Of a stretch of 19,119 bases of DNA, positions 2,322 to 19,119 are shown one piece after another. Numbering within the stretch: position 1 is the stretch's first letter; the number at the start of each line of letters is the position of its first letter. Under the pieces are notes generated by a model, which saw only the letters and a program-made list of their open reading frames with translations, was not told the origin of the DNA and did no database searches. Source of the stretch: a virus (Duplodnaviria > Heunggongvirae > Uroviricota > Caudoviricetes); IMG/VR virus record IMGVR_UViG_2529292923_000023; one strand, 5' to 3'. Made by a program: the position numbers and the translations under genes.

Positions 2322-2337
2322 AGTAGCTAACTATTCA

Positions 2338-2365
2338 GGCACAGTATCATTACTGTGCCTTTTTA
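2338..2365 (+). terminator. Rho-independent terminator after the 321-aa cargo gene
   Basis: GGCACAGTA-tcatt-TACTGTGCC perfect 9-bp stem followed by TTTTTATT. Confidence 0.6.
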
Positions 2366-2435
2366 TTGTTCATATATGTACAGATACTTCCTCCCGTAAC
2401 GAAGCAACAACTATCGCTAAGAGGTTACGGGAAGC

Positions 2436-3070: not shown

Positions 3071-3082
3071 CGGAGACTGAAA

Positions 3083-3916
3083 ATGAACATCGAAAAAAGC
3101 AGATTAATTTCTGAGGCCGCCCCTCATCTGAACGCCTCTCTGGGCACAATTAACGGTAATGAATTTGCCGCAATTGTCCCGGTTATTCCTGGTCATATCG
3201 GTGGGCGTGAAACCAATATTGTTAGCGCAAAAGCGTTACACAAAGCGTTGGGCGTGGGAAAAGACTTCTCTACATGGATCACTGATCGCATCTCTGAATA
3301 TGACTTCACCATTGGGCACGATTACTCAGTCCATAAAACAATTTCCCCAAATTTGGGGAAAAGCCCGAATGGCGCGGCTTACAGCAAGATAAAGCACTCT
3401 GGCAGACCCGGCAAAGACTATCTGTTAAGTGTCGGAATGGCGAAAGAACTGGCAATGATCGAACGCAATGATCAGGGTCGCGCTATCCGCCGTTATTTCA
3501 TCCAGTGCGAGGAAGAATTACAGCGTACCGTGCCTGAAATCGCCGCCCGCTATCGTCGCCAGCTAAAAGCCCGTATTAGTGCCGCAAACAACTTTAAGCC
3601 AATGTGCGATGCGCTGAATATGGCCCGTGCCGAGATGGGGAAAATGACGCAGCAACACCACTACACAAACGAGAGCAATATGATTTCTCGTATCGTTCTT
3701 GGTGGGCTAACTGCTAAGCAGTGGGCGCGGATAAATGGCTATTCTGGCGAACCTCGCGACCATATGAACGCAGAACAGCTTGAGCACCTCTCATATCTCG
3801 AAAGCACCAATATCACGTTAATTGATATGGGCATGGAATATGAGCAGCGCAAAGGAGAACTCACCCGCCTGTCGCAACGCTGGCTCGCCAAGCGTCTGGA
3901 GGCGCTCAATGTCTAA
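3083..3916 (+). CDS. Phage antirepressor-like protein (AntA/AntB-type N-terminal domain with C-terminal KilA-C-like region)
   Basis: 277 aa; GGAGA Shine-Dalgarno; the segment NIVSAKALHKALGVGKDFSTWITDRISEYDFTIGHDY resembles the AntA antirepressor domain signature recalled from phage Ant proteins. Confidence 0.65.
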   Translation: MNIEKSRLISEAAPHLNASLGTINGNEFAAIVPVIPGHIGGRETNIVSAKALHKALGVGKDFSTWITDRISEYDFTIGHDYSVHKTISPNLGKSPNGAAYSKIKHSGRPGKDYLLSVGMAKELAMIERNDQGRAIRRYFIQCEEELQRTVPEIAARYRRQLKARISAANNFKPMCDALNMARAEMGKMTQQHHYTNESNMISRIVLGGLTAKQWARINGYSGEPRDHMNAEQLEHLSYLESTNITLIDMGMEYEQRKGELTRLSQRWLAKRLEALNV

Positions 3917-4088
3917 GCCAACAGGAACACCACAACCACAAAAACGCTACAAAGATGCCCACGGAGCACTCGTTACTGTCGAAAGCGTGTCTCACAACCG
4001 AGTGACGTTTTATCGCGACGGGTATCAATCGCCATGCGTACAACCGCTGGCGCGTTTCATGAAGGAGTTCGCGGAGGTTAACCAATGA
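3909..4088 (+). CDS. Small hypothetical protein (59 aa), possibly a DUF4222-like phage protein
   Basis: In-frame ATG at 3909 overlapping the upstream stop (ATGTCTAA); the ORF track's longer 3822 start lies inside the upstream gene. Motif VTVESVSHNRVTFYRDGY is reminiscent of small prophage DUF proteins. Confidence 0.5.
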   Translation: MSKPTGTPQPQKRYKDAHGALVTVESVSHNRVTFYRDGYQSPCVQPLARFMKEFAEVNQ

Positions 4089-5152
4089 TACCCGTCCAGA
4101 AGAAGACATTTTCACTGGCTGGTATGTCGCCAAAATCCAGCAATATGACGGCAAAGTCAGGCATTAATACAGCAGATACAAGCAAAGTTTATCATTTGCT
4201 GGTGGTCGGAACGGATGCCTTAACCATACCAGAAATCTCGGGCGATGATATTAGCATTGAGAAGGTCAGCGGCTGCGCCAGAAAATTTCTGGTCGTAGAT
4301 GATGTCTTCCGCTCGCGTAGTGACTCCACAAAAACCTTCATCCGCGCGCGTGACGTTAACGAAATGAGCGCGATGTACTGTGCATCTGGTGCTTCCAATA
4401 GCGAGTTTTCGGAGTCCATAAAAAAGAGCTTGCCGTTATGCGGCAACACGGTTTATGGTTATAAGGCACCTCATAAAACGGGTGCCGGGATTGGCGTCCT
4501 GGTAAATCGAATGGCGACATATGACGCGCCGAGCGTCTTTTTTTATGTCGTAGGTCTGACTCACCCATTTTTTGGGCGTTGGTGTATAATCCAGCGCCTT
4601 TGTCAATCAATGGTGGCTCAGGCAGGGGCTTCTTCGGAAGCGCCGGTATCCATTCGAGCCGGTTACGCCAACCCTGTCTGGGCTACCACCAGCGAAATTG
4701 GCGTTTCCGGTGGTAGCGTTACATGCTATCGAATGGAGGCTGCCACATGCTGGCTACTACCCCTACCCAAAAACCGCAATTTATCTGGATTATCGCCGCA
4801 GTTCGCCGCGATTGCCCGACAATTACCGCCAGAATTCATCATATTGCTGCCGAGTCTGAACGCGATGCTCGCCGTTCTCTGGTGCGCGATCACGTCTGCT
4901 TTTTTGCTGGTCGTATCCGCATGGAGGTGGCACATGATTAAAACCTACGATGTGCATATGGATCCCCTCGAACGCACAAGCCAGATCATCACACTGACAG
5001 AAGTGATTAACGACATTCTGGTGAGCAACTCTCCCTCACGAGACGAAAGACTGAAGGCGTTACTCGCGATATTGGATCTCGCCGTTCGTGACGTTCATTT
5101 CCTGCTGGAAGGTGGCGAAATGCCAGTAAAAACGGGGGCAACCAATGAATAA
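4085..5152 (+). CDS. Long stop-free ORF (355 aa), probably composite: a possible N-terminal coding part, an internal likely non-coding structured region, and a real small 3' gene (MIKTYD..., start 4934)
   Basis: ATGA overlap with the upstream stop supports the 4085 start. Between about 4560 and 4930 this frame uses rare codons (CTA CTA CCC CTA, TTA, CGA, AGG) and gives W/C-rich implausible peptide, while a different frame (4747-4941) has good codon usage and a GGAGG Shine-Dalgarno. The ATG at 4934 also has a GGAGG Shine-Dalgarno. True gene structure is uncertain. Confidence 0.3.
4747..4941 (+). CDS. Small hypothetical protein (64 aa)
   Basis: GGAGG 7 nt upstream of ATG; enterobacterial-like codon usage (CGC, CTG, GAT, GCC); stop overlaps the next small gene's start region. 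Confidence 0.35.
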   Translation: MLATTPTQKPQFIWIIAAVRRDCPTITARIHHIAAESERDARRSLVRDHVCFFAGRIRMEVAHD

Positions 5153-5339
5153 CTCAATTAATACCCCTCGCCTTACGTCCGCACTTCAATTAATCGAGCA
5201 AGCAGCGGCTGTCCTGGTTGCTGTCAGTCTTTCGGCTGAAGAAATGGACGCTACTGATGTCGTGGATGCGATTAAAGCGTGCTCATCTTTGGTTAACGAT
5301 GCCCGTGCAGAGCTGGTAATTCTTGGGGGTGAAAAATGA
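5145..5339 (+). CDS. Small hypothetical protein (64 aa)
   Basis: ORF with upstream GGGGG Shine-Dalgarno-like run; start overlaps the preceding stop; part of a co-directional coupled operon upstream of the primase. Confidence 0.55.
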   Translation: MNNSINTPRLTSALQLIEQAAAVLVAVSLSAEEMDATDVVDAIKACSSLVNDARAELVILGGEK

Positions 5340-5599
5340 ATATCAACTTAATTTATCGTCATCCGTGTGAGCTGGAAATTGAATCATTGCTGAGCCGTGA
5401 AGAACCATATCCAGACACATTCACTCTTGCAGATCGCACGACTGAACGGCTTACCAGAGCGCGCACAGGTCTGGTTCATGTGATGAATGAGATTCTTCCA
5501 TCGGTGGGAGGGGAACAGGCGACAGTAATCACTAGCTGGCTACAAAAAGTTACCTCTCTGATAGATATCAGTTTAATCGATGCGGAGAGTGCGAAATGA
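5336..5599 (+). CDS. Small hypothetical protein (87 aa)
   Basis: ATGA overlap with the upstream gene; GGGGGTGA Shine-Dalgarno. Confidence 0.55.
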   Translation: MNINLIYRHPCELEIESLLSREEPYPDTFTLADRTTERLTRARTGLVHVMNEILPSVGGEQATVITSWLQKVTSLIDISLIDAESAK

Positions 5600-5817
5600 C
5601 CAACATCCAGCTCATTGAAGCGCAATGTCGCATCGAACAGGTTCAGACTGTTTTAGGGTTCTGGCTTGAAGGGGCCAGCCCCAGCAACAGAGACAAGTTA
5701 ATGATTGGCGCGGTTATGTCACTGCTCAATGGCGTACCAGAAGCTATTCAGGAAGCAGACGAATTGTTGGGCAAATATGAGTTACAGAATCATTCAGGCG
5801 AGGCGAAACATGAATAA
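5596..5817 (+). CDS. Small hypothetical protein (73 aa)
   Basis: ATGA overlap with the upstream gene; GGAGAG Shine-Dalgarno. Confidence 0.55.
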   Translation: MTNIQLIEAQCRIEQVQTVLGFWLEGASPSNRDKLMIGAVMSLLNGVPEAIQEADELLGKYELQNHSGEAKHE

Positions 5818-6412
5818 TTTCTTAACTTTCCAGGCAGAAGCAACGCCTGACGGCGTAAACATCATGCACCGCAGCAACGATGGCATGACAGAACGCGTTG
5901 AGACCGTCTCATATATTGATGCCGTAAATCGTCTGGATGCCGGGGATTATGACGATAAACCAGATGAAGGTATGTCAATACATCTCGCTATTGCCGATGG
6001 CGGCAACCAGGGATATTTCGATTACACATCACAGCATAACGTCATTATGTGGAGATGGTTGATCGCAACAGTATTCATGCTGGAAATGAGAGAGGAAAAC
6101 GGCACTGTCAGCATCATTGATGATACTGGCAATCCTTCCGAAGTGGCTGTTTATTCCAACGGCATCGTCGCCATGCCGCTGTATCCAGTAGCAGAGCGCC
6201 TCGCTATGGCAAACAACATTGAGGGCGCGATGATAGAACGTTTTGGCATCGAGTCTGGCACAGAACGCTCCATCATTTTCTACAGAGCCATGATGGATGT
6301 GGAACAAGGAGCACTGACTCCATTTGGTCGTGAAACGCTTGCTGAACTTCACAACAGCTTTATAGCTGAACTGAATGAAAACGGCATGCCATCGGAACCA
6401 GTGACGCACTGA
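5810..6412 (+). CDS. Hypothetical protein (200 aa from ATG 5810; ORF track gives a longer 5705 start inside the upstream gene)
   Basis: ATG at 5810 preceded by a GAGG Shine-Dalgarno and overlapping the upstream stop by 8 nt; acidic protein with no recognisable motif. Confidence 0.55.
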   Translation: MNNFLTFQAEATPDGVNIMHRSNDGMTERVETVSYIDAVNRLDAGDYDDKPDEGMSIHLAIADGGNQGYFDYTSQHNVIMWRWLIATVFMLEMREENGTVSIIDDTGNPSEVAVYSNGIVAMPLYPVAERLAMANNIEGAMIERFGIESGTERSIIFYRAMMDVEQGALTPFGRETLAELHNSFIAELNENGMPSEPVTH

Positions 6413-6422
6413 GGATGGAACC

Positions 6423-6764
6423 ATGATTACTAAAAATTTCCGACTGAATGCGCTGGCAAATAAGTATGCGTCAGCACTGTATAACCACATTACCTCCACC
6501 AGCGGCGGGGACTATTTCATGATTGATGCGGACGGAGAGGCCGTACGTGTGGAAATCGTCAATGGAGTAAAAGGCGTTCGCAGCCTGATCGATAGTTACG
6601 CACTGGCAGCCATGAAAGTGTTCTACCCGCAGTGGGAAACCGTGGGGATCGAGCTTCTTGATCGTTGCGTCACTAAGGACAGATTGACTGACGTCGGGCG
6701 TGAGATATGGCAAAGCATGGTTAATGACATGGGCGCAACTGTAGCGGGAGGTTCTCATGCGTGA
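6423..6764 (+). CDS. Hypothetical protein (113 aa)
   Basis: GAGGA Shine-Dalgarno 7 nt upstream of ATG; operon context. Confidence 0.6.
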   Translation: MITKNFRLNALANKYASALYNHITSTSGGDYFMIDADGEAVRVEIVNGVKGVRSLIDSYALAAMKVFYPQWETVGIELLDRCVTKDRLTDVGREIWQSMVNDMGATVAGGSHA

Positions 6765-7128
6765 AAATGCAGAAATGGCGCTTAGCTCCGCAATCGGAGA
6801 GCAGGTGGCAAAGATTGCTGGTGCTGTGTGGATTCATAACCTTCATTCTACTGGTGAAGAGAAAATGGCAATTCAGACGCCAGAGGGACGCACTATTACT
6901 ACATCTCTGAAGCCGTCAGATGTTTGTGATCTGATTTGCGCATTCATGTACCCAGCAATGAGGACTGTCCACGGCGATAAGTGGAAACTTGCGACAACCG
7001 CTGAATTTGATATGTGGCTAAACAATGATGGCATGCTGACTGATTACGGAATAACCAAGTGGCAGATGCTGGTTAGCCATATCGCAAACGCTATAGACCA
7101 CGTGGGGTACGGTGATGCGAAACATTGA
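6757..7128 (+). CDS. Hypothetical protein (123 aa)
   Basis: GGGAGG Shine-Dalgarno; start overlaps the upstream stop; immediately precedes and overlaps the primase gene. Confidence 0.6.
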   Translation: MRENAEMALSSAIGEQVAKIAGAVWIHNLHSTGEEKMAIQTPEGRTITTSLKPSDVCDLICAFMYPAMRTVHGDKWKLATTAEFDMWLNNDGMLTDYGITKWQMLVSHIANAIDHVGYGDAKH

Positions 7129-9871
7129 TCTTATCCGTCAGGTTATCAGTGCGTCTGAAAACAACTGGCCTCATGTGCTGGGCTGCCTGAACATAAATGT
7201 CCCTGACTCTCCGCGCCGTCATGCTCCCTGCCCTGCATGTGGGGGCAAAGATCGATTCCGGTTCGATGACAACGGGCGCGGTAGCTTCATCTGTAATCAG
7301 TGCGGCGCTGGTGATGGGCTGGATTTAATTAAACGCGTAAATAACTGCGACACAACAGAGGCGGCGCTGCTTGCCGCTGATGTTCTGGGTATTGATTACC
7401 GGACAACGGAAACACCAGAAGCCACCAGCCAGAAACGGGAACAACTGGAAACCGAGCGCCAGCAACGCGAACAGGAGCGCCTGAAAAGGGCGGAGAAGGA
7501 CGAACAACAAAGACGGGATACGTTTTCCCGTCAGTTTGATGACATGCGCAGAAAGGCTGTAAACGGCAAATCTGATTATCTGGTTGCGAAAGGGGTAGGT
7601 GATTTTACATTCCCCGTGTTGCCCGATGGATCTCTGTTGCTGGCGCTGGTGGATAAATCCGGCGCAGTCACAGCAGCACAGACTATTACCTCACATGGTG
7701 AAAAAAGACTCCTGACAGGTTCAGCAAAGCGGGGGGCATATCACGCCATAAACGCACCAGAAACAACACAGAGCATCTTAATCGCAGAAGGGCTGGCAAC
7801 GGCATTATCTGCCCATTTAATTCGTCCAGAGGCGCTGACAGTGGCGGCGATTGATGCCGGGAACCTGTTATATGTCGCCCAGGTACTGCGGGATAAATTT
7901 CCTTCAGCACAAATCATCATTGCTGCGGATAACGACCACAGCGAAGGAAGACAAAACACGGGGAGAATAGCAGCAGAAAAAGCAGCTTTATCTGTTTCTG
8001 GATGGGTGGCATTACCCCCGACAGGTCACAAAGCAGACTGGAATGATTACCACCAAAAACACGGCATTAAATGCGCCACAGAAGCGTTCAATAAGTCAAT
8101 GTACCAACCACAGGGTAATGGCGTGAAACAGGAGCCACAGACCATTGAGGGAAGCGATTTTAAGGTTATGGATACCGACCCACTGAAACCAAGAATAGAA
8201 AGCCGCGAGGATGGTATTTATTGGGTATCTCCGAGAGCTGACAGCCAGAGTGGAGAAATCATCAATAACGAAAGCTGGTTATGTTCTCCGTTAAGCGTTA
8301 TCGGTACTGGCAGAGACGATAAAGACCAGTATCTCATTCTTCGCTGGCTGTCGTTTGGTTCTGAAACGCCGACAACCGCTGCCATTCCACTGGCTGATAT
8401 TGGTGAACGTGAAGGATGGCGCACACTTAAAGCTGGTGGGGTAAATGTCACGACCAAAAGCAGCCTCAGAGCAATACTGGCAGACTGGCTACAACGCAGT
8501 GGCTCTCGTGAATTGTGGCGTGTTGCTCATGCCACTGGCTGGCAATGCGGAGCGTACATCATGCCTGATGGGGAAATCATCGGAACACCTGAAAATCCTG
8601 TGCTGTTCAGCGGGAGAAGCTCAGCCGCAGCCGGATATACCGTCTCAGGGAGCGCGCAAAGCTGGCGTGATAACGTGGCGCGTCTGGCCTTTGGTAACTA
8701 TTCAATGATGACCGGGATCGGCGCAGCACTGGCAGCACCATTGATTGGGCTGGTGGGCGCTGACGGGTTCGGCATTCATTTCTATGAGCAGTCGAGCGCA
8801 GGTAAGACCACCACGGCAAACGTGGCGAGCAGCTTATACGGCAACCCTGATTTACTGCGGCTGACGTGGTACGGAACCGCGCTGGGGCTGGCAAATGAGG
8901 CCGCCGCCCACAATGACGGACTAATGCCGCTTGATGAAGTTGGTCAGGGCGCTGATCCTGTCAGCGTTTCACAGTCTGCCTATGCGTTATTTAACGGTGT
9001 AGGGAAACTGCAAGGCGCTAAAGATGGTGGAAACCGGGATCTAAAACGCTGGCGTACAGTGGCAATCAGCACCGGAGAAATGGATTTAGAAACATTTATC
9101 GCTACTTCCGGGCGAAAAACCAAAGCCGGGCAACTGGTGCGACTGCTGAATATTCCGTTGAGTAAAGCAGTACGCTTTCACGATTACCAGAACGGAAAAC
9201 AGCACGCAGACGCACTGAAAGACGCTTACCAGCATCACCATGGCGCAGCCGGGCGTGAGTGGATTAAATGGCTGGCAGACCACCAGCAACAGGCTATTAA
9301 AACTGTTCGTGATTGCGAAAGCAGATGGAGAAGCCTGATCCCACCCGATTATGGTGAGCAGGTTCACCGTGTAGCCGCGCGATTTGCCATTCTGGAGGCC
9401 GCATTGTTGTTAGGCGAGGTTGTAACAGGCTGGGATGCTCAGACATGCCGTGATGCGATACAGCACAGCTATAACGCATGGTTGCGCGAGTTCGGCACAG
9501 GTAACAAAGAGCATCAGCAGATTATTGAACAAACGGAGGCATTTCTTAATGCCTATGGGCTTAGCCGTTTTGCACCATTTCCATACAGCCCGGCAGATTT
9601 GCCCATCAAAGATTTAGCCGGATACCGTCAGCGTGGAGAACATGACGAAAGCCCAATGATTTTCTACACATTCCCGGCCACATTTGAAAAGGAGATCGCA
9701 TGTGGTTTCAACGCAAAACAGTTTGCTGAAGTGTTGAAAAAAGCCGGGATGCTAACCCCACCAAACAGCGGTCGTGGATACCAAAGAAAATCACCACGTA
9801 TTCAGGGACGACAAATAAACGTTTATGTACTCAATTACCAGCCAGGAGATTATAACTCATCTGAAGAATGA
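7115..9871 (+). CDS. P4 alpha-like primase-helicase (zinc-ribbon + Toprim + DUF927/D5-type P-loop NTPase)
   Basis: 918 aa from ATG 7115 (the ORF-track start at 7112 is a GTG). N-terminal CPACGG...CNQCG zinc-binding motif. Toprim-like acidic motifs (IAEGLATA; IIIAADNDH). Walker A (SSAGKTTTANV) and Walker B-like (LMPLDEVG) in the C-terminal half. An iteron-type origin lies directly downstream. Confidence 0.9.
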   Translation: MRNIDLIRQVISASENNWPHVLGCLNINVPDSPRRHAPCPACGGKDRFRFDDNGRGSFICNQCGAGDGLDLIKRVNNCDTTEAALLAADVLGIDYRTTETPEATSQKREQLETERQQREQERLKRAEKDEQQRRDTFSRQFDDMRRKAVNGKSDYLVAKGVGDFTFPVLPDGSLLLALVDKSGAVTAAQTITSHGEKRLLTGSAKRGAYHAINAPETTQSILIAEGLATALSAHLIRPEALTVAAIDAGNLLYVAQVLRDKFPSAQIIIAADNDHSEGRQNTGRIAAEKAALSVSGWVALPPTGHKADWNDYHQKHGIKCATEAFNKSMYQPQGNGVKQEPQTIEGSDFKVMDTDPLKPRIESREDGIYWVSPRADSQSGEIINNESWLCSPLSVIGTGRDDKDQYLILRWLSFGSETPTTAAIPLADIGEREGWRTLKAGGVNVTTKSSLRAILADWLQRSGSRELWRVAHATGWQCGAYIMPDGEIIGTPENPVLFSGRSSAAAGYTVSGSAQSWRDNVARLAFGNYSMMTGIGAALAAPLIGLVGADGFGIHFYEQSSAGKTTTANVASSLYGNPDLLRLTWYGTALGLANEAAAHNDGLMPLDEVGQGADPVSVSQSAYALFNGVGKLQGAKDGGNRDLKRWRTVAISTGEMDLETFIATSGRKTKAGQLVRLLNIPLSKAVRFHDYQNGKQHADALKDAYQHHHGAAGREWIKWLADHQQQAIKTVRDCESRWRSLIPPDYGEQVHRVAARFAILEAALLLGEVVTGWDAQTCRDAIQHSYNAWLREFGTGNKEHQQIIEQTEAFLNAYGLSRFAPFPYSPADLPIKDLAGYRQRGEHDESPMIFYTFPATFEKEIACGFNAKQFAEVLKKAGMLTPPNSGRGYQRKSPRIQGRQINVYVLNYQPGDYNSSEE

Positions 9872-9893
9872 GCTTCTTCATGTGCGTAGAAAA

Positions 9894-10007
9894 GGTGTTG
9901 GTTCAGTTGGTTCAGTTGGTTCAATTTGTAAAGAGTATTGTTTTATAAGGATTTTATTCTTTTTATTGAACCAACACTGAACCAACAACACGGTATTTTG
10001 AACCAAC
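9894..10007. repeat. Iteron cluster 1 (putative ori): 3 tandem GTTGGTTCA (9897-9923), AT-rich spacer, 3 TGAACCAAC (9967-9975, 9978-9986, 9999-10007)
   Basis: Direct reading of the repeats; classic iteron/AT-rich unwinding-element architecture immediately 3' of the primase-helicase gene. Confidence 0.75.
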
Positions 10008-10327
10008 ACAATGTGACTGAATTGATGCGCACAACACCTGGCTGGCATCAGAGAGTGTTTTACGAGACTTTCGTAAAATCCTGTGTACAAGGGCGTGACG
10101 TTTTTGAAAGTGAGCACTACGAAATTTTCGTAGTTCAAAAAACAGCCTCTGAGAAGTTGTTATGCCTGTTCAGCAAACCATCCGCATAGCTGATCGCGAA
10201 TCAAATTACCAATGGAGCCAGAAGCAAGGGCAGAACTGAAAAGCGCCTGCCGTGAAGAGTAATGCGATACCATAAATATAGTTTTTAGAGTCCATAAAAA
10301 ACCTGTCAAAACCTGACACACAGAACG

Positions 10328-10360
10328 ATGCCACCAGCTACTGAGCGGTGGCATTTTTTT
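10328..10360 (+). terminator. Rho-independent terminator (likely ends the primase/ori transcript)
   Basis: ATGCCACC-agctactgagc-GGTGGCAT stem followed by TTTTTTT. Confidence 0.6.
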
Positions 10361-10422
10361 GTGCTATTTGTTTCATATTTTGCAATTACGATGATGAATA
10401 TTGCGATTTGTGAAACCATAAT

Positions 10423-10442
10423 AACTGTTGTTTTATACAGTT
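10423..10442. promoter_or_regulatory. LexA-like SOS box (AACTGTTGTTTTATACAGTT) overlapping the putative promoter of the downstream cassette
   Basis: CTGT-N8-ACAG with AT-rich spacer and the same symmetric AACTGT/ACAGTT flanks as the dinD box at 18095-18114; sits 14 bp upstream of the 53-aa ORF start, just after the terminator. Confidence 0.4.
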
Positions 10443-10455
10443 CTAAGGGGGCGTT

Positions 10456-10617
10456 ATGGCTATTTCAGTAAAGCCGGTATTGATAAGTGAGAAGCAAATG
10501 GAAGCGATAAAGAAAATTCAGGAAGAGCAGCGTAAAAAATCAGGAATTGGAGTAGCGCCAACTCTGCATGAAATTGCACGAGGGTTAATAGATAAGGCGC
10601 TGGCAGGCTGTATGTGA
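10456..10617 (+). CDS. Small protein (53 aa), possible ribbon-helix-helix (Arc/CopG-like) regulator or antitoxin; below the ORF-track size cutoff
   Basis: AAGGGGG Shine-Dalgarno 5 nt upstream of ATG. Predicted beta-strand (PVLIS), helix (EKQMEAIKKIQEEQ), Gly turn, helix (TLHEIARGLIDKAL) pattern. First gene of the cassette. Confidence 0.45.
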   Translation: MAISVKPVLISEKQMEAIKKIQEEQRKKSGIGVAPTLHEIARGLIDKALAGCM

Positions 10618-10633
10618 AAATGGATGGCATCGC

Positions 10634-11095
10634 ATGGAACTAAAATTTATTGATAACCCTGTGCGATTACAGGCCTTTCTTAACGAGCCAGGCAATACCG
10701 AAAATATTGTTGAGCCGGGGCACACGTACTACATCAAGCCTGATGCGGTATATCTCGGCATCTACGAAGGATTAGTGCTGGCTGGCGTTCATGAAGTGCG
10801 TAACTTCTGGCATAGCGTTGTTGAATGCCATGCGGTGTACGACCCCGGATTCCGTGGTGAATATGCACTGCAAGGGCATCGATTATTCTGCAAATGGCTT
10901 CTCGAAAACTCACCATTCCTTAACAGCATCACCATGGTTCCTGACACCACCAAATACGGACGGGCAATTATCCGTTTGCTTGGCGCTACCCGTGTTGGTC
11001 ACCTTGATGATGCTTATATCAGATGTGGTAAACCCGTCGGCGTAACGCTTTATCAGTTAACTCGGCAACAATATAAGGAATTCAGCGAATGTTAA
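10634..11095 (+). CDS. Hypothetical protein (153 aa), Cys/His-containing, unknown function
   Basis: ORF 16 bp after the 53-aa gene; overlaps the next gene start (coupled); no recognisable motif. Confidence 0.6.
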   Translation: MELKFIDNPVRLQAFLNEPGNTENIVEPGHTYYIKPDAVYLGIYEGLVLAGVHEVRNFWHSVVECHAVYDPGFRGEYALQGHRLFCKWLLENSPFLNSITMVPDTTKYGRAIIRLLGATRVGHLDDAYIRCGKPVGVTLYQLTRQQYKEFSEC

Positions 11096-11766
11096 TTACC
11101 CATATAGCTCATAAACATCTCAATCGTGCCGTATACGAAAAAGGCGGTGATGGTGGTGCCTCTAAAGCTCAGGCGAAGGCCCAGCAGCAGGCAATTGATT
11201 TGCAGCGCGAGCAGTGGAATACGGTGATGAATAATCTCAAGCCGTATGCAGAAGTCGGATTGCCTGCTTTACAACAACTGCAAGGACTGATGACTCTGGA
11301 AGGGCAGAATAAAGCCGCGAATGATTTCTTTGGTTCTGGTTTATATAAAACACAGGCAGATCAGGCCCGTTATCAGAACCTTGTCTCAGCAGAAGCTACC
11401 GGGGGGCTTGGCTCAACAGCTACCAGTAACCAGTTATCTTCCATTGCGCCCATGCTTTATAACAATTGGCTCAGTGGGCAAATGCAAAATTATGGAAACC
11501 TGCTAAATGTCGGGATGAATGCGGCATCAGGGCAGGCAACGGCAGGGCAAAACTACGCCAATAATACCGGACAACTCTTGCAGGGGCTTGGCGCTATTCG
11601 TGCAGGTCAGGCGCAGCAGCCATCCAGTCTTGCGCGTGGTATTGGTGGGGCAGCATCAGGCGCTTTAGCGGGTGCGCAACTTGGTTCCGTTGTTCCTGGA
11701 ATAGGAACTGCGGCCGGCGCTATTGGTGGTGGGCTTATTGGTCTTGTTGGGGGGCTTGGATTCTAA
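11089..11766 (+). CDS. Hypothetical Gln/Ala/Gly-rich protein (225 aa) with glycine-zipper C-terminus; possible phage ejection/internal virion protein (P22 gp7-like by size and position)
   Basis: No cysteine; low-complexity Q/A/N/G composition; C-terminal GxxxG-rich hydrophobic tail (GAIGGGLIGLVGGLGF); translationally coupled to neighbours. Confidence 0.65.
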   Translation: MLITHIAHKHLNRAVYEKGGDGGASKAQAKAQQQAIDLQREQWNTVMNNLKPYAEVGLPALQQLQGLMTLEGQNKAANDFFGSGLYKTQADQARYQNLVSAEATGGLGSTATSNQLSSIAPMLYNNWLSGQMQNYGNLLNVGMNAASGQATAGQNYANNTGQLLQGLGAIRAGQAQQPSSLARGIGGAASGALAGAQLGSVVPGIGTAAGAIGGGLIGLVGGLGF

Positions 11767-13187
11767 TGGCGACATGGCAACTTGGCGGGCTGCCTAGCAT
11801 GGCACCGCAAAATGATAATGCTCCTCGTTCTTCCGTTCCTCAGCCTGTGCAGTATCAGCAGCAGCCAAACGTAGGTTTAATGGCGCTACAGGGGCTAAGA
11901 GGCGTTGCTGAGATTAATCAGCAGGCACGTCAACAACAGCGTAAATCAGAGTTTCAGAAAGCATATGCCGGGGCTTTTGAGTCTGGAGACAGAAACAAAA
12001 TGCGCAGTCTTATTTCTGAGTATCCAGAAGAATTTGAAAGCGTTCAGAAAGGGATGGGCTTTATTGATGACGACCAGAGAAATTCTATTGGTCATCTTGC
12101 GACTAGTGCTCAAATCGCATCTTCGCTCGGAACTGGGGCATTTGGAAAATTCATAGCAGATAACGAAGATGAAATGCGTCGCTTGGGAATTTCTCCTGAG
12201 TCTGTTGCCGAAATGCATGTTAATGATCCACAGGGATTCCAGCGGCTTGCTGGTAGTATGGCACTGTTTTCTCTCGGTCATGAGAAGTATTTCGATATCA
12301 AAGATCAAATGGAAGGTCGGGATATTGAGCGAGGCAGGCTGGCAGAGACAATCCGCAGCAATCAGGCTGGCGAAGCACTTCAGGCGAGAGGGCAGGATAT
12401 TAGCCGAGCAAATGCGTTAACGTCAGCATATGCACCAACAGCAGCAATGCAGAATTACAATCAGTACGCTCAAATGTTAAAGGCGGATCCAGAGGGGGCG
12501 GCGGCATTTGCGGCAGCGGCTGGAATTAATACAAACGCCAAAAAATTAATGAGTGTTAGAGAAAACGATGATGGCACTGTCACAAAATACTACACAGACG
12601 GAAGTGAAGAGCAGGGAAAACTAAACCAGCCAATATCTGGAGATGGGTTTCGTCCAATAGCTTTGCCAACAGCCCAAAAGATCATGGAAAAGTCGCCAGA
12701 AGGGGCTAAAAAAGCTGCTGGATTTGCATACAGGGTTAGGGATGCTCTTGATTCAATAGATACACTGAAAGACCAGCTTAGCCCACAGCGAGTGGCGATC
12801 ATTAATAATGCTTTGGGTAATGGGACGCTGGCTAACTTAACGCTCAGCCCAACAGAGCAGCAATACGTTGTTAATGCTAATGACGCAATAATGGCAATAC
12901 TCCGTCAGGAAACAGGGGCAGCTATCGTACCTGCTGAAATGTCAAAATATTATCAAATGTATTTCCCTCAGCCTGGCGACTCCACAAAAACCATTGATAC
13001 CAAGCGCCGGAAGATGGAAAACCAGTTCAATTCGCTGAAAGCTGCTTCTGGTCGAGCTTATGATGCTTTGCGGGTTATTTCAGCAGTTGACAGAGGAACG
13101 TCTTCTTCGTCGCAGACATTGCCGCAATCTGAGCAGGTATCACAGCCAGCAGCCAGCAGTAACTTTTCTTCACTATGGGGTGATTAA
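11766..13187 (+). CDS. Hypothetical Gln/Ala-rich protein (473 aa); possible phage ejection/internal virion protein (P22 gp20-like by size and position)
   Basis: TAATG start overlap; no cysteine in 473 residues; Q-rich N-terminus; long ORF with good codon usage. Confidence 0.7.
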   Translation: MATWQLGGLPSMAPQNDNAPRSSVPQPVQYQQQPNVGLMALQGLRGVAEINQQARQQQRKSEFQKAYAGAFESGDRNKMRSLISEYPEEFESVQKGMGFIDDDQRNSIGHLATSAQIASSLGTGAFGKFIADNEDEMRRLGISPESVAEMHVNDPQGFQRLAGSMALFSLGHEKYFDIKDQMEGRDIERGRLAETIRSNQAGEALQARGQDISRANALTSAYAPTAAMQNYNQYAQMLKADPEGAAAFAAAAGINTNAKKLMSVRENDDGTVTKYYTDGSEEQGKLNQPISGDGFRPIALPTAQKIMEKSPEGAKKAAGFAYRVRDALDSIDTLKDQLSPQRVAIINNALGNGTLANLTLSPTEQQYVVNANDAIMAILRQETGAAIVPAEMSKYYQMYFPQPGDSTKTIDTKRRKMENQFNSLKAASGRAYDALRVISAVDRGTSSSSQTLPQSEQVSQPAASSNFSSLWGD

Positions 13188-15292
13188 TGGCTAAAGCATG
13201 GAAAGATGTTATCGCCTCTCCACAGTATCAGGCGTTAGCACCAGAACAAAAAGCGCAGGCTCAGGAGCAATACTTCAATGAAGTCGTTGCCCCGCAAGCC
13301 GGAGAAAGTGTAGAGCAGGCTAAGCAGGCTTTTTATGCTGCCTATCCACTACCATCAACGAATGAAATAGACCGATCCCAATCAGCAACTCAAAATATTC
13401 AACATACATCATCTGATAATTCTCTTGCGTCAGGGTATGCAAAGTTAGCTACTCAGCAAAGAGAGGGGCTTGAGCGTTCAGCAGAACAGGGAGCCAGTCT
13501 TGGGGCTGCGATGCGCGATGCTATAACAGGCGAAAGCCGAATGACTTCAGAGATGGAGAGACTGCAAAATGTCGCCTCTGCCCCAGAATTGAACTCACTA
13601 AGCATGGATGCCCTAAAGGCTGGATGGTCCCAACTTTTCGGCTCTGACGCGTCTCAGGAAAAGATTCTTCAGGGAATGGGGGCGACATTAAGGCAGGATG
13701 AGAAGGGGAATACTATCGTTTCTCTGCCATCAGGTGATTATGCCCTGAACAAGCCGGGTTTATCACCGCAAGACCTGACTTCGTTTCTTGCTAATGCGTT
13801 GGCGTTTACACCAGCGGGCAGGGCTGGAACGGTGCTTGGTGCCATAGGAAAATCAGCAGCTACAGATTTAGCACTACAGGGAGCCACCAGCCTTGCTGGT
13901 GGAGAAGATATTGATCCGTTACAAACGGTAATTTCTGCTGGCATTGGTGGTATTGGTAAGGGGCTGGAAAATACAGCGAGTGCGGTTTCGAGGGCTGTTC
14001 GTGGTGATATGTCGCCTGAAGCAAAGGCTGCTGTCGACTTTGCATCGGAAAGAAATCTGCCGTTAATGACCAGTGACATGCTGAAAGATAAAACCTTTAT
14101 GCAGAGTCAGGCTCAGACATTAGGCGAAAGAGTTCCTTTTTTTGGAACCGGTAAGAATCGGCTGAATCAACAACAAGCACGAGAAAATTTAGTCAGAACA
14201 TTTAGCGATGGTCTGGGTGGCATTTCTGATAAACAGCTTTATGAATCTGCGACTAAAGGGCAACAAAAATTCATTGAGGCAGCAGGAAAGCGATATAACC
14301 GCATAATTGACGCTATGGGGGATACCCCTGTCGATCTCTCAAACACGGTAAAAGCTATCGACAATCAGATTGCCGTGTTAAGCCGCCCGGGCAAATCTCA
14401 GGATAGAGCCGCGGTAAAAGTCTTGCAGCAATTTAAAGACGATATCACCAGCGGACCAAATGACCTGCGCCTGGCGAGGGAAAACAGAACCGATCTTCGA
14501 AAGCGATTTATTGCGTCATCTGACACTGTTGATAAAGATACGCTCCAGAAAGCCAGCGATATTATCTACAAGGCATATACGGCGGATATGAAAAAAGCCG
14601 TAGCCAAAAATCTTGGAGCAGACGAAGCCATTAATATGGCAAGGGTTGATCGCTCATGGTCTAAATTCAATAACATGATGGGAAGAACGCGCGTTCAAAA
14701 GGCAATAGCCAGCGGCAAGGCCACGCCTGAGGATGTAACAAAACTCGTTTTTAGCCAAAGCCCATCAGAACGTTCTCAGCTTTACAGGCTTCTGGATGAC
14801 AATGGTAGGCAAAACGCACGAGCAGCCATAGTTCAGAATGCTGTAGATAAGGCGACTGATCCGTCTGGAAATATCAGTGTTGAGAAGTTTATTAATGCGT
14901 TACACCGGAACAGGAAGCAATCAGCAACTTTCTTTAAAGGCGTACATGGGAAGGAACTGGACGGCGTTATTAAATACCTCAACGATACAAGACACGCGGC
15001 AAAAGCGAACGTTCAAAACTTAAATGGTCAGCAGCTTTATGGATTGTTAGTTGGTGGTGGCATCATAAACGCAGCAGTATTAGCGGGGATGCTAAAAACG
15101 GCTGCGTTTGTTGTTCCTGCTGCTGGTGCCGTAGGCGGAGCAGCGAAGGCATACGAAACCCCTGTTATACGAAATGCCTTGTTACGTCTGGCAAATACGC
15201 CAAAAGGTAGCACAGCATATGACAGAGCGATCAGTACGGTCACACAATCGCTCACCAGAGTCGCACAGGCATCACAAAAAGAAGCTCAATAA
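13187..15292 (+). CDS. Hypothetical Gln/Ala-rich protein (701 aa) with hydrophobic Gly/Ala-rich C-terminal segment; possible phage ejection/internal virion protein (P22 gp16-like by size and position)
   Basis: TAATG start overlap; no cysteine in 701 residues; C-terminal LLVGGGIINAAVLAGMLKTAAFVVPAAGAVGGAAKAY membrane-like segment. Confidence 0.75.
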   Translation: MAKAWKDVIASPQYQALAPEQKAQAQEQYFNEVVAPQAGESVEQAKQAFYAAYPLPSTNEIDRSQSATQNIQHTSSDNSLASGYAKLATQQREGLERSAEQGASLGAAMRDAITGESRMTSEMERLQNVASAPELNSLSMDALKAGWSQLFGSDASQEKILQGMGATLRQDEKGNTIVSLPSGDYALNKPGLSPQDLTSFLANALAFTPAGRAGTVLGAIGKSAATDLALQGATSLAGGEDIDPLQTVISAGIGGIGKGLENTASAVSRAVRGDMSPEAKAAVDFASERNLPLMTSDMLKDKTFMQSQAQTLGERVPFFGTGKNRLNQQQARENLVRTFSDGLGGISDKQLYESATKGQQKFIEAAGKRYNRIIDAMGDTPVDLSNTVKAIDNQIAVLSRPGKSQDRAAVKVLQQFKDDITSGPNDLRLARENRTDLRKRFIASSDTVDKDTLQKASDIIYKAYTADMKKAVAKNLGADEAINMARVDRSWSKFNNMMGRTRVQKAIASGKATPEDVTKLVFSQSPSERSQLYRLLDDNGRQNARAAIVQNAVDKATDPSGNISVEKFINALHRNRKQSATFFKGVHGKELDGVIKYLNDTRHAAKANVQNLNGQQLYGLLVGGGIINAAVLAGMLKTAAFVVPAAGAVGGAAKAYETPVIRNALLRLANTPKGSTAYDRAISTVTQSLTRVAQASQKEAQ

Positions 15293-15296
15293 CTGG

Positions 15297-15319
15297 TTAG
15301 CCATGGATGGCTAATTTTT
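15297..15319. terminator. Hairpin terminator between convergent genes (TTAGCC-atggat-GGCTAA + TTTTT)
   Basis: 6-bp stem, 6-nt loop, T-run on + strand; lies between the stop of the 701-aa gene and the stop of the minus-strand membrane gene. Confidence 0.45.
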
Positions 15320-15661
15320 GTTCTTTGCTCTCATCCATAGGTAAAGAAGGGAAAGAACAAGACAAAAAACAGAGAATAGATAACCTACCTCATATGGTGC
15401 GCCAAAAAAATTAGCCATTGATACGGGCAAAAAAGCTGAAGCGATCAAAATTGAAAGGCAAAAAATAAGCCCAGTAATATAGTTTATTAAATTCTTAAAT
15501 GAGAAACGTTTTGCTTGATTTACGGTCTTAACGAACGATCGCTTAACGACGGATAAAAGCAAATAGATGGCGACAGTTGCTAATGCCCCTTTCCACCAGT
15601 CTGGATATAGTTTTGCGACAATCAGACCAAGGAAAACCATGATGACAGCCTGAGCATTCAC
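15311..15661 (-). CDS. AT-rich polytopic small membrane protein (about 116 aa from GTG at 15661; the ORF allows an upstream ATG at 15730)
   Basis: Strong AAGGGAGGG Shine-Dalgarno 5 nt upstream of the GTG at 15659-15661; three to four hydrophobic helices; markedly AT-rich relative to neighbours; convergent with the cassette. Confidence 0.55.
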   Translation of the reverse strand: MNAQAVIMVFLGLIVAKLYPDWWKGALATVAIYLLLSVVKRSFVKTVNQAKRFSFKNLINYITGLIFCLSILIASAFLPVSMANFFGAPYEVGYLFSVFCLVLSLLYLWMRAKNKN

Positions 15662-15846
15662 ACCAACCCTCCCTTTAGCTTTGTTTAGAATGGCAATCAT
15701 CATATATCCAAGACATGGCATTTGGTACATAGCTTGGGTCGGGATTTCAAATCCGATCCCCGTTGATGGGGCCGTTACAGTACGCGCATATCCTCTTTAT
15801 GTGAAACAGGAAGATTTTTCTGATATCACTGCCACAGCAAAACACC

Positions 15847-16156
15847 AATTTCGTGACCAGTACGCGCGCGAGGGGTATCAGTTGCAAAAAATTTTGCAAC
15901 TGCGTCCGACCAGTACGCACACGATGGCGGGGAGCACCATAAAACTGTTCTCTACATAAGACAGAGTGGTGGTGATGTGTTGATTATCGGCGTATATGCG
16001 CACAGGACGCGCTATGACGATGTTTTATGCGGGTACACCAATCACATGTATCTGGTGTGATCAATCGCGTTACATGACATCTCATGTTGTGCTGGTGATT
16101 ATCACGACGTTCTGAATCTGGCCTTTGCCTGATATTTTGCGACAAGTACGCGCGCG
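15847..16156. repeat. Non-coding region carrying a 24-bp repeat family (AATTTCGTGACCAGTACGCGCGCG-like; copies at 15847-15870 and 16134-16156, a third at 17743-17766) plus degenerate copies and palindromes
   Basis: Direct reading; three near-identical copies sharing the TACGCGCGCG core; imperfect palindrome CAGTTGCAAAA-AA-TTTTGCAACTG at about 15879-15902. Confidence 0.5.
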
Positions 16157-16184
16157 TAGCATCGACAGCATACACATTGGATAT

Positions 16185-16385
16185 TCATTTTGTGACCAAT
16201 GCGATAAGTAGCGGGATAAGAATTGATAAAATCAACAGGACGATGATCCACTTTTGATTCTCGTCCATCTTATCTGCTAGGCGACGCTCCATTCCGTGCA
16301 TATCACCGCGAATGGCAATCATCTCATTGCGAACATCCGAGAAGTGGTTGGCTTGATGTTCAATGTGTGGCGTTCTGCCTTTCAT
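16185..16385 (-). CDS. Small C-tail-anchored membrane protein, XhlA-like (66 aa)
   Basis: GAGGA Shine-Dalgarno upstream; charged helical N-terminal part followed by one C-terminal transmembrane segment (WIIVLLILSILIPLLIALV), the architecture of XhlA/holin-like small proteins. Confidence 0.5.
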   Translation of the reverse strand: MKGRTPHIEHQANHFSDVRNEMIAIRGDMHGMERRLADKMDENQKWIIVLLILSILIPLLIALVTK

Positions 16386-16464
16386 GTCTGATCCTCACCT
16401 ATCGTCACCACCTGATGGTGTATAAAGGTATTAGCCCAAGCAGCTTTCCAATGGGCACTCATGT

Positions 16465-16920
16465 TTATACGCTGACCTTACAATCAATCACCGCTTTTAA
16501 CTTTTCAGCATTGCTTCCCTGACGCTTCCACGCGCTGTAAATATCTTTATCCCACGCTTTACCAGCTTTTGTTTGATAGCCTGCTTCATTGATCCGTTCA
16601 GCTATCACACGCCCATTATCAAATCCCTGTTGGATGGTATCGGCAATGATCTTCATAACTGCCGTTTCGTTATATGGTTTTGGTGGGATGTTCGGCTTTC
16701 CGGCAATAAGCGACGCAGCGGCTTTTTCCATGCGCTCCACCAGCCCAAGCATTCGTGAATCAATAGACTTTTCCGGCTGCCCCAGCTTCATGCGAATCGC
16801 ATCAACAAGCCAAGAGGTTTTATCTCCTCCAGAAGCGAGAACAGACCGATTAAACTCATCCTGCAATTCAGATGGGATGCGGAACGCGATCAGATTAGAT
16901 TTGCTCATTGCAAAGACCAT
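16465..16920 (-). CDS. Ribbon-helix-helix (Arc/Mnt-like) transcriptional regulator (151 aa; alternative start at 16908)
   Basis: N-terminal SNLIAFRIPSELQDEFNRSVLASGGDKTSWLVDAIRM fits the Arc-family RHH pattern (beta-strand, helix, Gly turn, helix); palindromic operator-like sites immediately upstream; divergent from the PerC-like gene. Confidence 0.6.
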   Translation of the reverse strand: MVFAMSKSNLIAFRIPSELQDEFNRSVLASGGDKTSWLVDAIRMKLGQPEKSIDSRMLGLVERMEKAAASLIAGKPNIPPKPYNETAVMKIIADTIQQGFDNGRVIAERINEAGYQTKAGKAWDKDIYSAWKRQGSNAEKLKAVIDCKVSV

Positions 16921-16937
16921 ATCAGTGAGTAATATCC

Positions 16938-16969
16938 ATACAGTATACCACTGTATAACACTGTTATAC
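16938..16969. promoter_or_regulatory. Two overlapping palindromes (ATACAGT-atacc-ACTGTAT and GTATAACA-c-TGTTATAC) in the RHH regulator's promoter region; putative operators
   Basis: Perfect inverted repeats read directly; positioned 18-50 bp upstream of the RHH gene start on the minus strand. Confidence 0.4.
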
Positions 16970-17022
16970 GCTCAAATATCAGCCAGAAAATAACAGACCA
17001 ATCACAAATCTATCGCTGTGTT

Positions 17023-17143
17023 GTTGGTTCAGAGCTGGGCTGTGTTGGTTCAAAATGAGTTGATGTTGGTTCAATATTTTAGAAAAAACACAATAAAAAC
17101 AACGCTCTTTACAAATTGAACCAACTGAACCAACTGAACCAAC
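17023..17143. repeat. Iteron cluster 2 (crr-like): 3 GTTGGTTCA (17023-17031, 17044-17052, 17065-17073), AT-rich spacer, 3 tandem TGAACCAAC (17117-17143); inverted copy of cluster 1
   Basis: The reverse complement of 17102-17147 is essentially identical over about 46 bp to 9890-9935 (AAAGGTGTTGGTTCAGTTGGTTCAGTTGGTTCAATTTGTAAAGAG), with continued but diverged similarity beyond. Confidence 0.75.
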
Positions 17144-17179
17144 ACCTTTTTGCTTATCTATATAATCTGAGAGGCAGAA

Positions 17180-17467
17180 ATGATAAAGGACAGGAAAGCT
17201 GAAGAGCTGGAGTCAAAAGGGCTATACCGGAGAGCTGCCGCACGATGGGCAGAAGTCATGATGCTGGCAGATGGCGATAAAGAACGTGAACATGCAGCAA
17301 ACAGACGCTCTGAATGTATCCGTAAGGCGGCACGCCCACCAGCAACTACAGACAGATTCGGAGATTTAAGACAGGCAGTTAAGCGGACTCATTCGGCTCT
17401 TGGTATGGATGAGGAAGCGAGAGGGTACTTCAGGCGTTATCGCGATAAAGATTGCCAGAGACAGTAA
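17180..17467 (+). CDS. PerC-family transcriptional regulator-like protein (95 aa)
   Basis: N-terminal AEELESKGLYRRAAARWAEV matches the PerC/Pch family signature (ELE.KGLWRRAA.RW); GAGAGG Shine-Dalgarno; a TATAAT hexamer at 17161-17166 just downstream of the iterons. Confidence 0.65.
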   Translation: MIKDRKAEELESKGLYRRAAARWAEVMMLADGDKEREHAANRRSECIRKAARPPATTDRFGDLRQAVKRTHSALGMDEEARGYFRRYRDKDCQRQ

Positions 17468-17973
17468 TGCTCTCTCTGTTTTGGCAAATTACCCCTCACT
17501 TTGAAGGGATCGGAGCTATAAAAATGGTGTTATCCGGAATCCTCAAATTGAGGATTGTGGAAGAATCAATGGGTTAGGTCATCGTGCAAATTTGCACTCT
17601 GCCAGCCAACGCAATTTCTCGTTGGCGGAAATATCAGGTATTTACTGAACGAACGGTCTACCAGTCTGTTCAGTTACCAGTTGCACATGGCTGTTTCATG
17701 TGAGAACGGAGGTTTTTTTCGGACATCGCTATTGGGTACAGCAATTTCACGAGCAATACGCGCGCGCAGGACAACAAGCCTGAACATGGTTACACACCTC
17801 GATCCTGAGGGATGTAGACAATGGCTTCTGACCAAAGCACCCGAAAAAACCGTGTACATAAGGGTGTACATAATCAAAAATCGCATTAGAAAGAAACCAG
17901 CCACAATGCGGCATTAAAGCCAACACTCTACAAACAGATTCAAACGCCAATTCTTACTTTTCAGCCTTCACAA

Positions 17974-18004
17974 ATGCCGCCCACTCAAACAGAGCGGCAT
18001 TTTT
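17974..18004 (+). terminator. Possible rho-independent terminator (ATGCCGC-loop-GCGGCAT + TTTTT)
   Basis: 7-bp stem with 13-nt loop and T-run; no convincing upstream CDS, so it may end a small RNA or a read-through transcript. Confidence 0.4.
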
Positions 18005-18094
18005 CTTCCCCGCAACTTCAATTCTGTTTTGCGTGCCTGCTCCAGATTTTGCGATGTTTTTTTGCCCAGCGCAGTGAGAACGTGAGATACTCAC

Positions 18095-18114
18095 AACTGT
18101 ATATAAACACAGTT
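18095..18114. promoter_or_regulatory. LexA (SOS) box AACTGTATATAAACACAGTT upstream of the dinD-like gene
   Basis: Perfect CTGT-N8-ACAG with AT spacer matching the LexA consensus TACTGTATATATATACAGTA; overlaps a TATAAA -10-like hexamer; about 45 bp upstream of the ATG. Confidence 0.8.
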
Positions 18115-18157
18115 GTAGACTTACTTTCCTTGCAATCGATATCACATGGAGTGGGCA

Positions 18158-19119
<962 letters not shown>

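Follow-up and report, generated by a model that had tools for sequence, protein, structure and literature searches.

The DNA analysed here is a 19,119-bp stretch from a virus record (IMGVR_UViG_2529292923_000023 in IMG/VR), referred to below as the window, which is an integrated phage-inducible chromosomal island (PICI) of the EcCIMP1-like kind. It carries two iteron blocks, one directly behind the primase-helicase gene (module 1, 9890..10010, + strand) and one past the cargo genes (module 2, 17023..17150, - strand). We put at about 0.6 the probability that both are initiator-binding modules of a split replication origin of EcCIMP1-type PICIs, and that module 2 is conserved and active in replication. 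PICI origins are usually described as one compact unit of iterons and AT-rich DNA just past pri-rep. Iteron origins are already known for PICIs, and published elements can be seen to have the two-module structure; neither a two-module PICI origin described as such nor a kilobase-scale split of its modules by cargo, recurrent across genera, was found in the searchable literature.

All 12 exact copies of the 9-mer GTTGGTTCA in the window fall inside either 9897-10007 or 17023-17143. In the first block they start at 9897, 9906 and 9915 (+) and at 9967, 9978 and 9999 (-), and in the second at 17023, 17044 and 17065 (+) and at 17117, 17126 and 17135 (-). With up to one mismatch allowed, the window contains 20 matches, as compared with 4.75 +/- 2.29 expected, and none of 200 shuffles reached this number. 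Each block is built from three tandem copies, a 43-bp AT-rich spacer and three dispersed inverted copies, and the two are reverse-complementary to each other, so that module 1 reads tandem (9897-9923), spacer (9924-9966) and dispersed (9967-10007), and module 2 reads dispersed (17023-17073), spacer (17074-17116) and tandem (17117-17143). The dispersed iterons are spaced by 11+21 bp in block 1 and by 21+21 bp in block 2. The G+C content of both spacers is about 16-21%; according to nearest-neighbour energies, that of block 1 is the least stable 43-mer in the window, while that of block 2 ranks 118th among the 19,077 43-mers. The longest inverted repeat of the window pairs 9890-9944 with 17096-17150 (55 nt, 96% complementary, 7151 nt apart), and the second longest (38 nt, 82%) pairs the dispersed-iteron halves of the two blocks. 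When block 1 is aligned to the reverse complement of block 2, 46 columns in a row are identical, a run which reflects conserved motifs, namely the iteron triplet and CAATTTGTAAAGA. A preliminary description of this DNA had already given the block coordinates, the three-plus-three iteron count, the reverse-complement relation and the identity of about 46 bp, all of which were reproduced exactly in the iteron, repeat and alignment scans.

The origins of Staphylococcus aureus pathogenicity islands (SaPIs) have an AT-rich centre with 6-12 iterons, which point in opposite directions on its two sides (PMC9371898), and a pri-rep-ori segment of EcCICFT073 drives plasmid replication (PMC6092414). As in these PICI and SaPI origins (PMC6092414, PMC9371898), opposed iterons around an AT-rich stretch are found in the window directly 3' of the pri/rep gene, module 1 beginning 26 nt past the primase stop. 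Opposed iteron sets around an AT-rich region are present in both modules; the position directly 3' of pri-rep is occupied by module 1, module 2 lying 7.15 kb downstream of the primase and thus not directly 3' of the initiator gene.

The initiator itself, a pri-rep fusion of 919 aa (7112..9871, + strand), contains the Pfam domains Zn_Ribbon_Prim, Toprim_3 and DUF927, followed by a C-terminal region (residues ~651-919). SaPI Rep reads its iterons with a C-terminal winged-helix domain and loads itself as the helicase (PMC9371898). The comparison with such initiators, which are self-loading helicases with a C-terminal origin-reading domain, may extend to the window protein, judging from a structural model of residues 651-919 (pLDDT 75.6), which is predicted to be Cch-like: its best match among solved structures is the SCCmec Cch helicase (5dgk, E 4e-4, TM 0.50). 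The NCBIfam Cch1 match to the primase is weak and far below the cut-off.

The iteron type of an element follows the last ~130 residues of its own primase-helicase. This was observed in a comparative set of 77 loci encoding primase relatives (one genome per species; L numbers below denote individual loci), each of which was scanned for a locus-specific repeat. One iteron is used per element, in both modules, and seven other variants occur among the relatives, for example GTTGTCTCA, GTCGGTTCA and TAACCCGY; TAACCCGC is another iteron which, like GTTGTCTCA, is non-cognate to the window element. Residues 791-919 are 74% identical between pairs of primases with the same iteron and 57% between pairs with different iterons, and after regression on the rest of the protein a residual difference of 0.108 is left (1378 pairs), which was reached in 0 of 2000 label permutations. 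The loci with TAACCCGT are 84-86% identical in residues 651-790 and just 54-62% in residues 791-919, while three loci which keep GTTGGTTCA show 68-71% in the former region and 79% in the latter. The same iteron is present in both blocks of every relative, and the early view of the blocks as ori-like sequences tied to the primase is borne out by this and by the tracking of iteron type with the primase C-terminus.

Among the related loci scanned, 54 have a module of the block 1 kind behind the primase stop. In 22 loci, which belong to other genera, both modules are adjacent and lie within ~310 bp of the primase stop, always in the order tandem (+), spacer, dispersed and then dispersed, spacer, tandem (-). 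Unrelated cargo of 0.34-9.0 kb splits the modules in 12 loci, the window among them, the distances being 0.34, 0.57, 1.1, 2.25, 4.8, 5.9, 6.2, 6.8, 7.1, 7.2, 8.4, 8.8 and 9.0 kb. Four further elements of Escherichia coli with the same primase, located at four attachment sites, have 6+6 exact iterons that are 6.0, 7.6, 8.2 and 8.5 kb apart. Wherever both modules could be read, the orientation of module 2 was the inverted one, and every island readable end to end contained both. In the primase tree, the split state occurs in at least six clades nested among relatives of the adjacent type.

The adjacent arrangement is also that of previously known PICIs. In four other E. coli PICI types, among them capsid-forming types and an island resembling EcCIEDL933, the modules are adjacent within ~340 bp of the primase stop and the iterons were not found elsewhere in the island, and EcCICFT073 carries several sets of iterons with opposing orientation, ~11 copies in all, no more than ~225 bp from the primase stop. 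These five have two adjacent iteron modules, unlike the window and all five EcCIMP1-type elements of E. coli that were examined, in which the second module is an inverted full copy with its AT-rich spacer located 6-8.5 kb away, past the cargo. This suggests that the PICI origin unit normally consists of two mirror-image modules. It also qualifies the earlier statement that the pair encloses the whole accessory cassette, which is correct for the window but not as a rule, as most relatives have adjacent blocks with the homologous cargo outside. The adjacent arrangement of the window-type modules was searched for in E. coli with a cargo-deleted query, which gave 0 joined matches in 551 genomes; ET729, considered as an adjacent-type exception, was rejected since it is a degraded element without most of the primase. 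A different rearrangement is seen in L034 (Yersinia pekkanenii), where three double-module origins in direct orientation are located at -5712, -1130 and +51 relative to 13866. The copies are 4.6 and 1.2 kb apart and are accompanied by a repeated 3' fragment of the primase gene, an arrangement suggestive of a tandem duplication of part of the origin region. One matching Y. pekkanenii protein is named as an HNH-endonuclease-domain protein (P0114).

Module 2 is conserved in a way that points to its iterons. Among the split loci, its iteron columns are 87% identical, as compared with 62% for the columns between them; the corresponding values for module 1 are 98% and 57%. Outside the iterons, identity is 62% for module 2 across loci, 42% between modules 1 and 2 of the same locus and 43% between modules 1 and 2 of different loci. 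Because module 2 is more similar across loci than to module 1 of its own locus, and the same-locus pair is no closer than the cross-locus one, the modules are old paralogues without gene conversion; a recent duplication, or gene conversion between the blocks, was rejected on the same grounds. Five E. coli elements from four attachment sites, and also relatives from Leclercia and Cedecea, keep all six module 2 9-mers without a mismatch. In L085 and L087 the neighbouring genes have been replaced, and similarity to the window restarts exactly at 17022, the base before module 2.

In view of this pattern it is quite improbable that module 2 has no function and travels with the cargo as a relic left by an old duplication or rearrangement of the origin. 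The stricter conservation of module 1 (98% against 87% in the iteron columns) would fit a relic, as would the reportedly low transfer of EcCIMP1 by its helper (PMC11773190). A relic is nevertheless hard to reconcile with six iterons kept exact in the five E. coli elements, Leclercia and Cedecea, with iterons conserved while the bases between them diverge, with module 2 iterons that change in step with those of module 1 when the specificity changes, and with a module that is retained when its flanks are swapped and is found in every island that can be read from end to end.

The spacer of module 2 differs between the two arrangements. An orthologous AT-type module 2 is present in the 11 other split loci and in the four sampled E. 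coli elements, and the spacer is AT-rich in 12 of 12 split loci as compared with 7 of 22 adjacent ones (Fisher p = 1.4e-4). The 15 remaining adjacent loci have a GC-rich module 2 spacer with a GCCGCGCCA motif, which is also present in EcCICFT073. In these 15 loci the GC-rich motif GCCGCGCCAnnnCTGG fills the spacer, the recorded positions being L083 12170-12215 and the module 2 spacers of L004, L005, L006, L040 and L045; EcCICFT073 shares the GC-rich motif despite having a different primase family and a different iteron.

It has to be considered whether module 2 serves as a control locus rather than as part of the origin. Additional arrays of initiator-binding sites are familiar from plasmids: P1 incC/incA, F incB/incC and R6K gamma with alpha/beta have initiator-binding repeats at a second site, which act at a distance through DNA pairing or looping, and the extra iteron arrays P1 incA and F incC restrain replication by initiator titration or 'handcuffing'. 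Module 2 could in the same manner titrate the initiator or handcuff the origin, or it could regulate the divergent promoters of perC and of the leftward gene on its other side. Such a role is rather unlikely, although several observations would suit it. The full layout of published origins (PMC6092414, PMC9371898) is already present in module 1 by itself, and module 2 lies in a 259-bp intergenic region between divergent genes, where a perfect TATAAT at 17161-17166, 18 bp past the last iteron, puts its -35 position on that iteron. A small leftward regulator gene adjoins module 2 in most split loci, and the GC-rich module 2 spacer of 15 adjacent loci makes melting there unlikely. Against this, every split locus keeps the AT-rich spacer and a ATTTGTAAAGA motif in module 2, which therefore looks like a complete origin unit and not a bare binding array. 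The auxiliary loci of P1 and F are bare iteron arrays without an AT-rich unit of their own, and R6K alpha/beta are single sites; furthermore, these plasmid initiators are RepA-type proteins and not primase-helicases. The gene to the right of module 2 varies between genera, so that no single promoter explains the conservation of the module, and perC is often not adjacent to it in relatives. A scan for consensus promoters returned nothing in 16800-17300, nor in 9700-10700. The overlap of the second block with the perC promoter, proposed in the preliminary description, is thus in agreement with the divergent geometry and the TATAAT box but not with the promoter scan.

An active replication role for module 2 is therefore our preferred interpretation, against which the following points have to be weighed. 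Binding, melting and cooperation at the blocks are inferred from sequence, and the paper on EcCIMP1 mentions neither an origin nor iterons (PMC11773190). As module 1 is complete by itself, module 2 could be dispensable for initiation, and its position in a promoter-bearing intergenic region between divergent genes means that its role could be mainly regulatory. In eleven related loci module 1 alone was seen in the 10 kb of sequence available, which did not extend to their right ends, no attachment-site repeat being found in it; these loci were hence left out of the scoring of adjacent and split states. The nearest primase relative of the window, L004, has a module 2 of the GC type, so that the type of module 2 conflicts with the primase tree and the history must be mosaic. 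Finally, the permutation test on residues 791-919 and the Fisher test on the spacers both ignore phylogenetic relatedness.

In the mechanism that we propose, induction by a helper phage would be followed by binding of the primase-helicase, through its C-terminal domain, to the iterons of both modules. It would then melt an AT-rich spacer and load itself as the replicative helicase, as SaPI Rep does. Module 1 would be the primary site of melting and loading, while module 2 would either fire as a second origin or cooperate with module 1 from a distance through loops formed by the initiator, in the way that crr and ori do in P4.

The two-site ori/crr system of P4, to which the blocks had been likened from the outset, turned out to be the best-fitting analogy, with the same iteron at both sites and crr units of a similar layout. 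In the annotated P4 record, two cis sites with a shared iteron are likewise kilobases apart (4.7 kb between ori and crr), and crr is directly 3' of alpha, as module 1 is 3' of the primase. Crr consists of two direct repeats of ~120 bp, each made up of a pair of tandem iterons and, past an A/T-rich gap, inverted iterons, a layout like that of the blocks in the window, and both ori and crr are required in cis according to the annotation of the record. The primase domains are homologous as well: the N-terminus of the window primase (residues 8-362 only) aligns to residues 5-339 of P4 alpha with 33% identity over ~350 residues (E 2e-41). The homology does not extend throughout alpha, however, since the helicase and C-terminal parts belong to Pfam D5_N/DUF5906/Pox_D5 in P4 and to DUF927/Cch-like sequences in the window element. 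The iteron sequences also differ, and P4 ori is a different array from crr, whereas the two sites of the window are mirror-image copies. The element is thus P4-like in outline and outside the P4 family.

A stronger version of the split origin, in which EcCIMP1-type satellites and several independent Enterobacterales lineages would have a truly bipartite origin, with two complete mirror units 6-9 kb apart which the primase-helicase would have to pair before initiation, in the manner of P4 ori and crr, is tentative and on the whole doubtful. As the DNA-binding and helicase parts of the initiator are unrelated to those of P4, such a long-range origin would be a case of convergence. Two cis sites, both of them essential, would then enclose and lock the cargo bay, and only second units with an AT-rich spacer, being self-sufficient, would be movable, which would explain the 12 of 12 split loci.

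The presence of a long inverted repeat around the cargo raises the question of whether the 7.1-kb segment inverts, or is excised or amplified, by recombination between the repeats, as was initially proposed. A 55-nt inverted repeat of 96% could support occasional RecA-dependent inversion, and the cargo between the conserved blocks does differ among strains and related elements, as the preliminary description had suggested checking. Inverted repeats, however, flip the enclosed segment and neither excise nor amplify it. A synthetic left junction of the inverted form (9300-9944 followed by 16450-17095 in reverse complement) was searched against 5426 complete E. coli genomes, of which 373 carry a window-type primase; it was joined in 0 of the 552 genomes with matches, as compared with 361 and 231 genomes for the native left and right junctions, which served as controls. 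The eight cargo open reading frames (ORFs) that were scanned have no recombinase, invertase, resolvase or transposase family in Pfam, and the ORFs scanned between 10456 and 17467 have no recombinase family in Pfam, PHROG, PADLOC or NCBIfam. There is no target-site duplication beside the repeats, the flanks GAGCTTCTTCATGTGCGTAG and TGCTTATCTATATAATCTGA sharing none. The breakpoints at which cargo has been replaced in E. coli are mostly inside the interval (11926, 15310, 16165 and 16498), the left edge of module 2 (17022) being the sole block edge found at a breakpoint, in two of the four comparisons. The blocks also lack concerted evolution. Taken together, the missing inverted junctions, invertase, transposase and target duplication, and the internal breakpoints, mean that the segment is not an invertible or excisable cassette, and inversion is effectively excluded at the population level. 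The rejection extends to a composite transposon or segment bounded by insertion sequences (no transposase in the interval, no target duplication), to a site-specific invertible segment (a single orientation in E. coli genomes, no serine invertase gene) and to the iteron blocks as general crossover points for cargo. Mu G/Gin, P1 C/Cin and Salmonella Hin resemble the window in having short inverted repeats that bracket a segment of several kb in a phage-related element. They differ from it in that the window lacks a serine invertase gene, its repeats are iteron arrays and not gix- or hix-type sites, and its segment occurs in one orientation only (361 genomes).

With respect to the identity of the element, positions 1-18384 of the window are collinear at 99.7% with a ~17.9-kb island that E. 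coli strain 755 carries between yicC and dinD, and are collinear with locus L001, where a 24-nt direct repeat (92% identical) flanks the island at 6221 and 24152, 17,931 bp apart. The candidate attR core (17851..17874, unstranded) puts the right end of the island ~0.7 kb past module 2. Positions 18385-19119 are an IS21-family element inserted in dinD, with IstB at 18451-19113 on the minus strand. The left part of the island contains, in order, the integrase, a hypothetical gene, AlpA, an AntA-type antirepressor, an ash/icd-like region, small ORFs and the primase-helicase; the right part contains block 1, DUF2824, gp7, gp20, gp16, variable leftward small genes, block 2 and a PerC-family gene. 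As in PICIs, int (a tyrosine integrase, 1-1260, the only recombinase gene found), alpA (2436-2639) and pri-rep form a rightward unit, repeats flank the island, and the phage-like genes are those for ejection proteins only. EcCIMP1 is a PICI which is excised and transferred with the P22-like phage Kapi1 (PMC11773190). At thrW-proA, beside MarR and Vat, which is the EcCIMP1 context, sits an element whose primase 3' end is 99.3% identical, and this near-identical primase at the EcCIMP1 locus ties the window element to the Kapi1-mobilised PICI. Elements with near-identical primases (L084-L087) occupy at least four sites in E. coli, namely yicC/dinD, within srkA, thrW-proA and next to intF; the integrases at these four sites are different, which indicates modular exchange of the integration module.

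The cargo operon between the modules (10456..15292, + strand) was identified from Pfam, PHROG and nucleotide matches, including PHROG 'DNA transfer protein', and is 86-96% identical at the nucleotide level to Sf6-, P22- and Kapi1-type phages. It comprises a small ORF (10456-10617), a DUF2824 gene (10634-11095, Pfam), the P22-type ejection genes gp7 (11089-11766, Pfam) and gp20 (11766-13187) and a gp16-like ejection gene (13187-15292), all on the plus strand. Ejection alleles are swapped among the E. coli elements with the same primase, L084 and L087 having a longer, transglycosylase-type gp16 and L086 missing DUF2824 and gp7, which suggests matching with different helpers. The operon is followed by variable small genes (15311..16385, - strand), which have no match in Pfam, PADLOC or the other family searches. 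This stretch holds the replacement hotspot seen within E. coli: in strain cq9, 16165-16498 is swapped for 1.35 kb with a gene for an ImmA/IrrE metallopeptidase, in L002 an ImmA/IrrE gene falls in the replaced stretch of the cargo interval, and an Abi-annotated gene is present in the interval in other E. coli strains. A motif of ~23 nt, ATTTCGTGACCAGTACGCGCGCG, occurs in three direct copies (15842-15870, 16128-16156 and 17738-17766; 83-87% identity to the reference copy across 23 nt), two of which are in the variable leftward genes, that at 16128 adjoining the hotspot, and one between perC and the candidate attR.

The small leftward gene at 16465..16920 (- strand) is, according to tblastn and ORF maps, the gene that usually borders module 2 on its inner side in split loci. 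Its product has no curated family match in Pfam, PHROG, PADLOC or NCBIfam, and reads as a putative DNA-binding protein with a ribbon-helix-helix-like N-terminus. Just upstream of it, operator-like repeats (ACAGTATAC / CACTGTATAAC / ACTGTTATAC) are found at 16940-16975, and homologues in other genera have other triple repeats in the same place, such as TGTAAGACAG in L040 and L022, which suggests a possible autoregulated repressor with lineage-specific operators. Directly outside module 2 is the PerC-family regulator gene (17180..17467, + strand; Pfam PerC, E 3e-33). The PerC homologue of EcCIMP1 has been characterised (PMC11773190).

Rfam matches at the gathering level were obtained for int-alpA RNA (1269-1335), isrK (4466-4543) and C4 antisense RNA (4606-4693), the latter two inside a long ORF (4085-5152, 'ash family protein'). 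Sites of 9 nt complementary to C4 are located at 4709-4717 and 4729-4737, a layout shared with the P1/P7 immI region (c4, icd, ant). That C4 antisense RNA controls the cargo operon was considered and rejected, as a C4-complementary site is absent downstream of module 1. The 22-nt motif AGTTTTyrGAGTCCATAAAAAA occurs at 4404-4425 and 10280-10301, with a weaker copy at 10123-10144, the first of these lying upstream of isrK/C4 and the others in the ~450 bp of non-coding DNA that separate module 1 from the cargo. It has no complementarity to C4 and may be a shared promoter or regulator site.

In this widespread family of E. coli satellites, every element examined has 6-8.5 kb between its modules, a space that holds the helper-matched ejection genes and a variable hotspot, and the reading of the segment as an invertible cassette, tempting but wrong, is removed. 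'Type C' PICIs, which are poorly annotated, can be delimited and typed by their paired iteron modules together with the matching C-terminus of the primase. Should the distant module prove necessary, its position would set limits on how cargo is gained or lost, and these elements would offer a natural system, alongside P4 ori/crr, for long-range cooperation between origin sites by a self-loading helicase.

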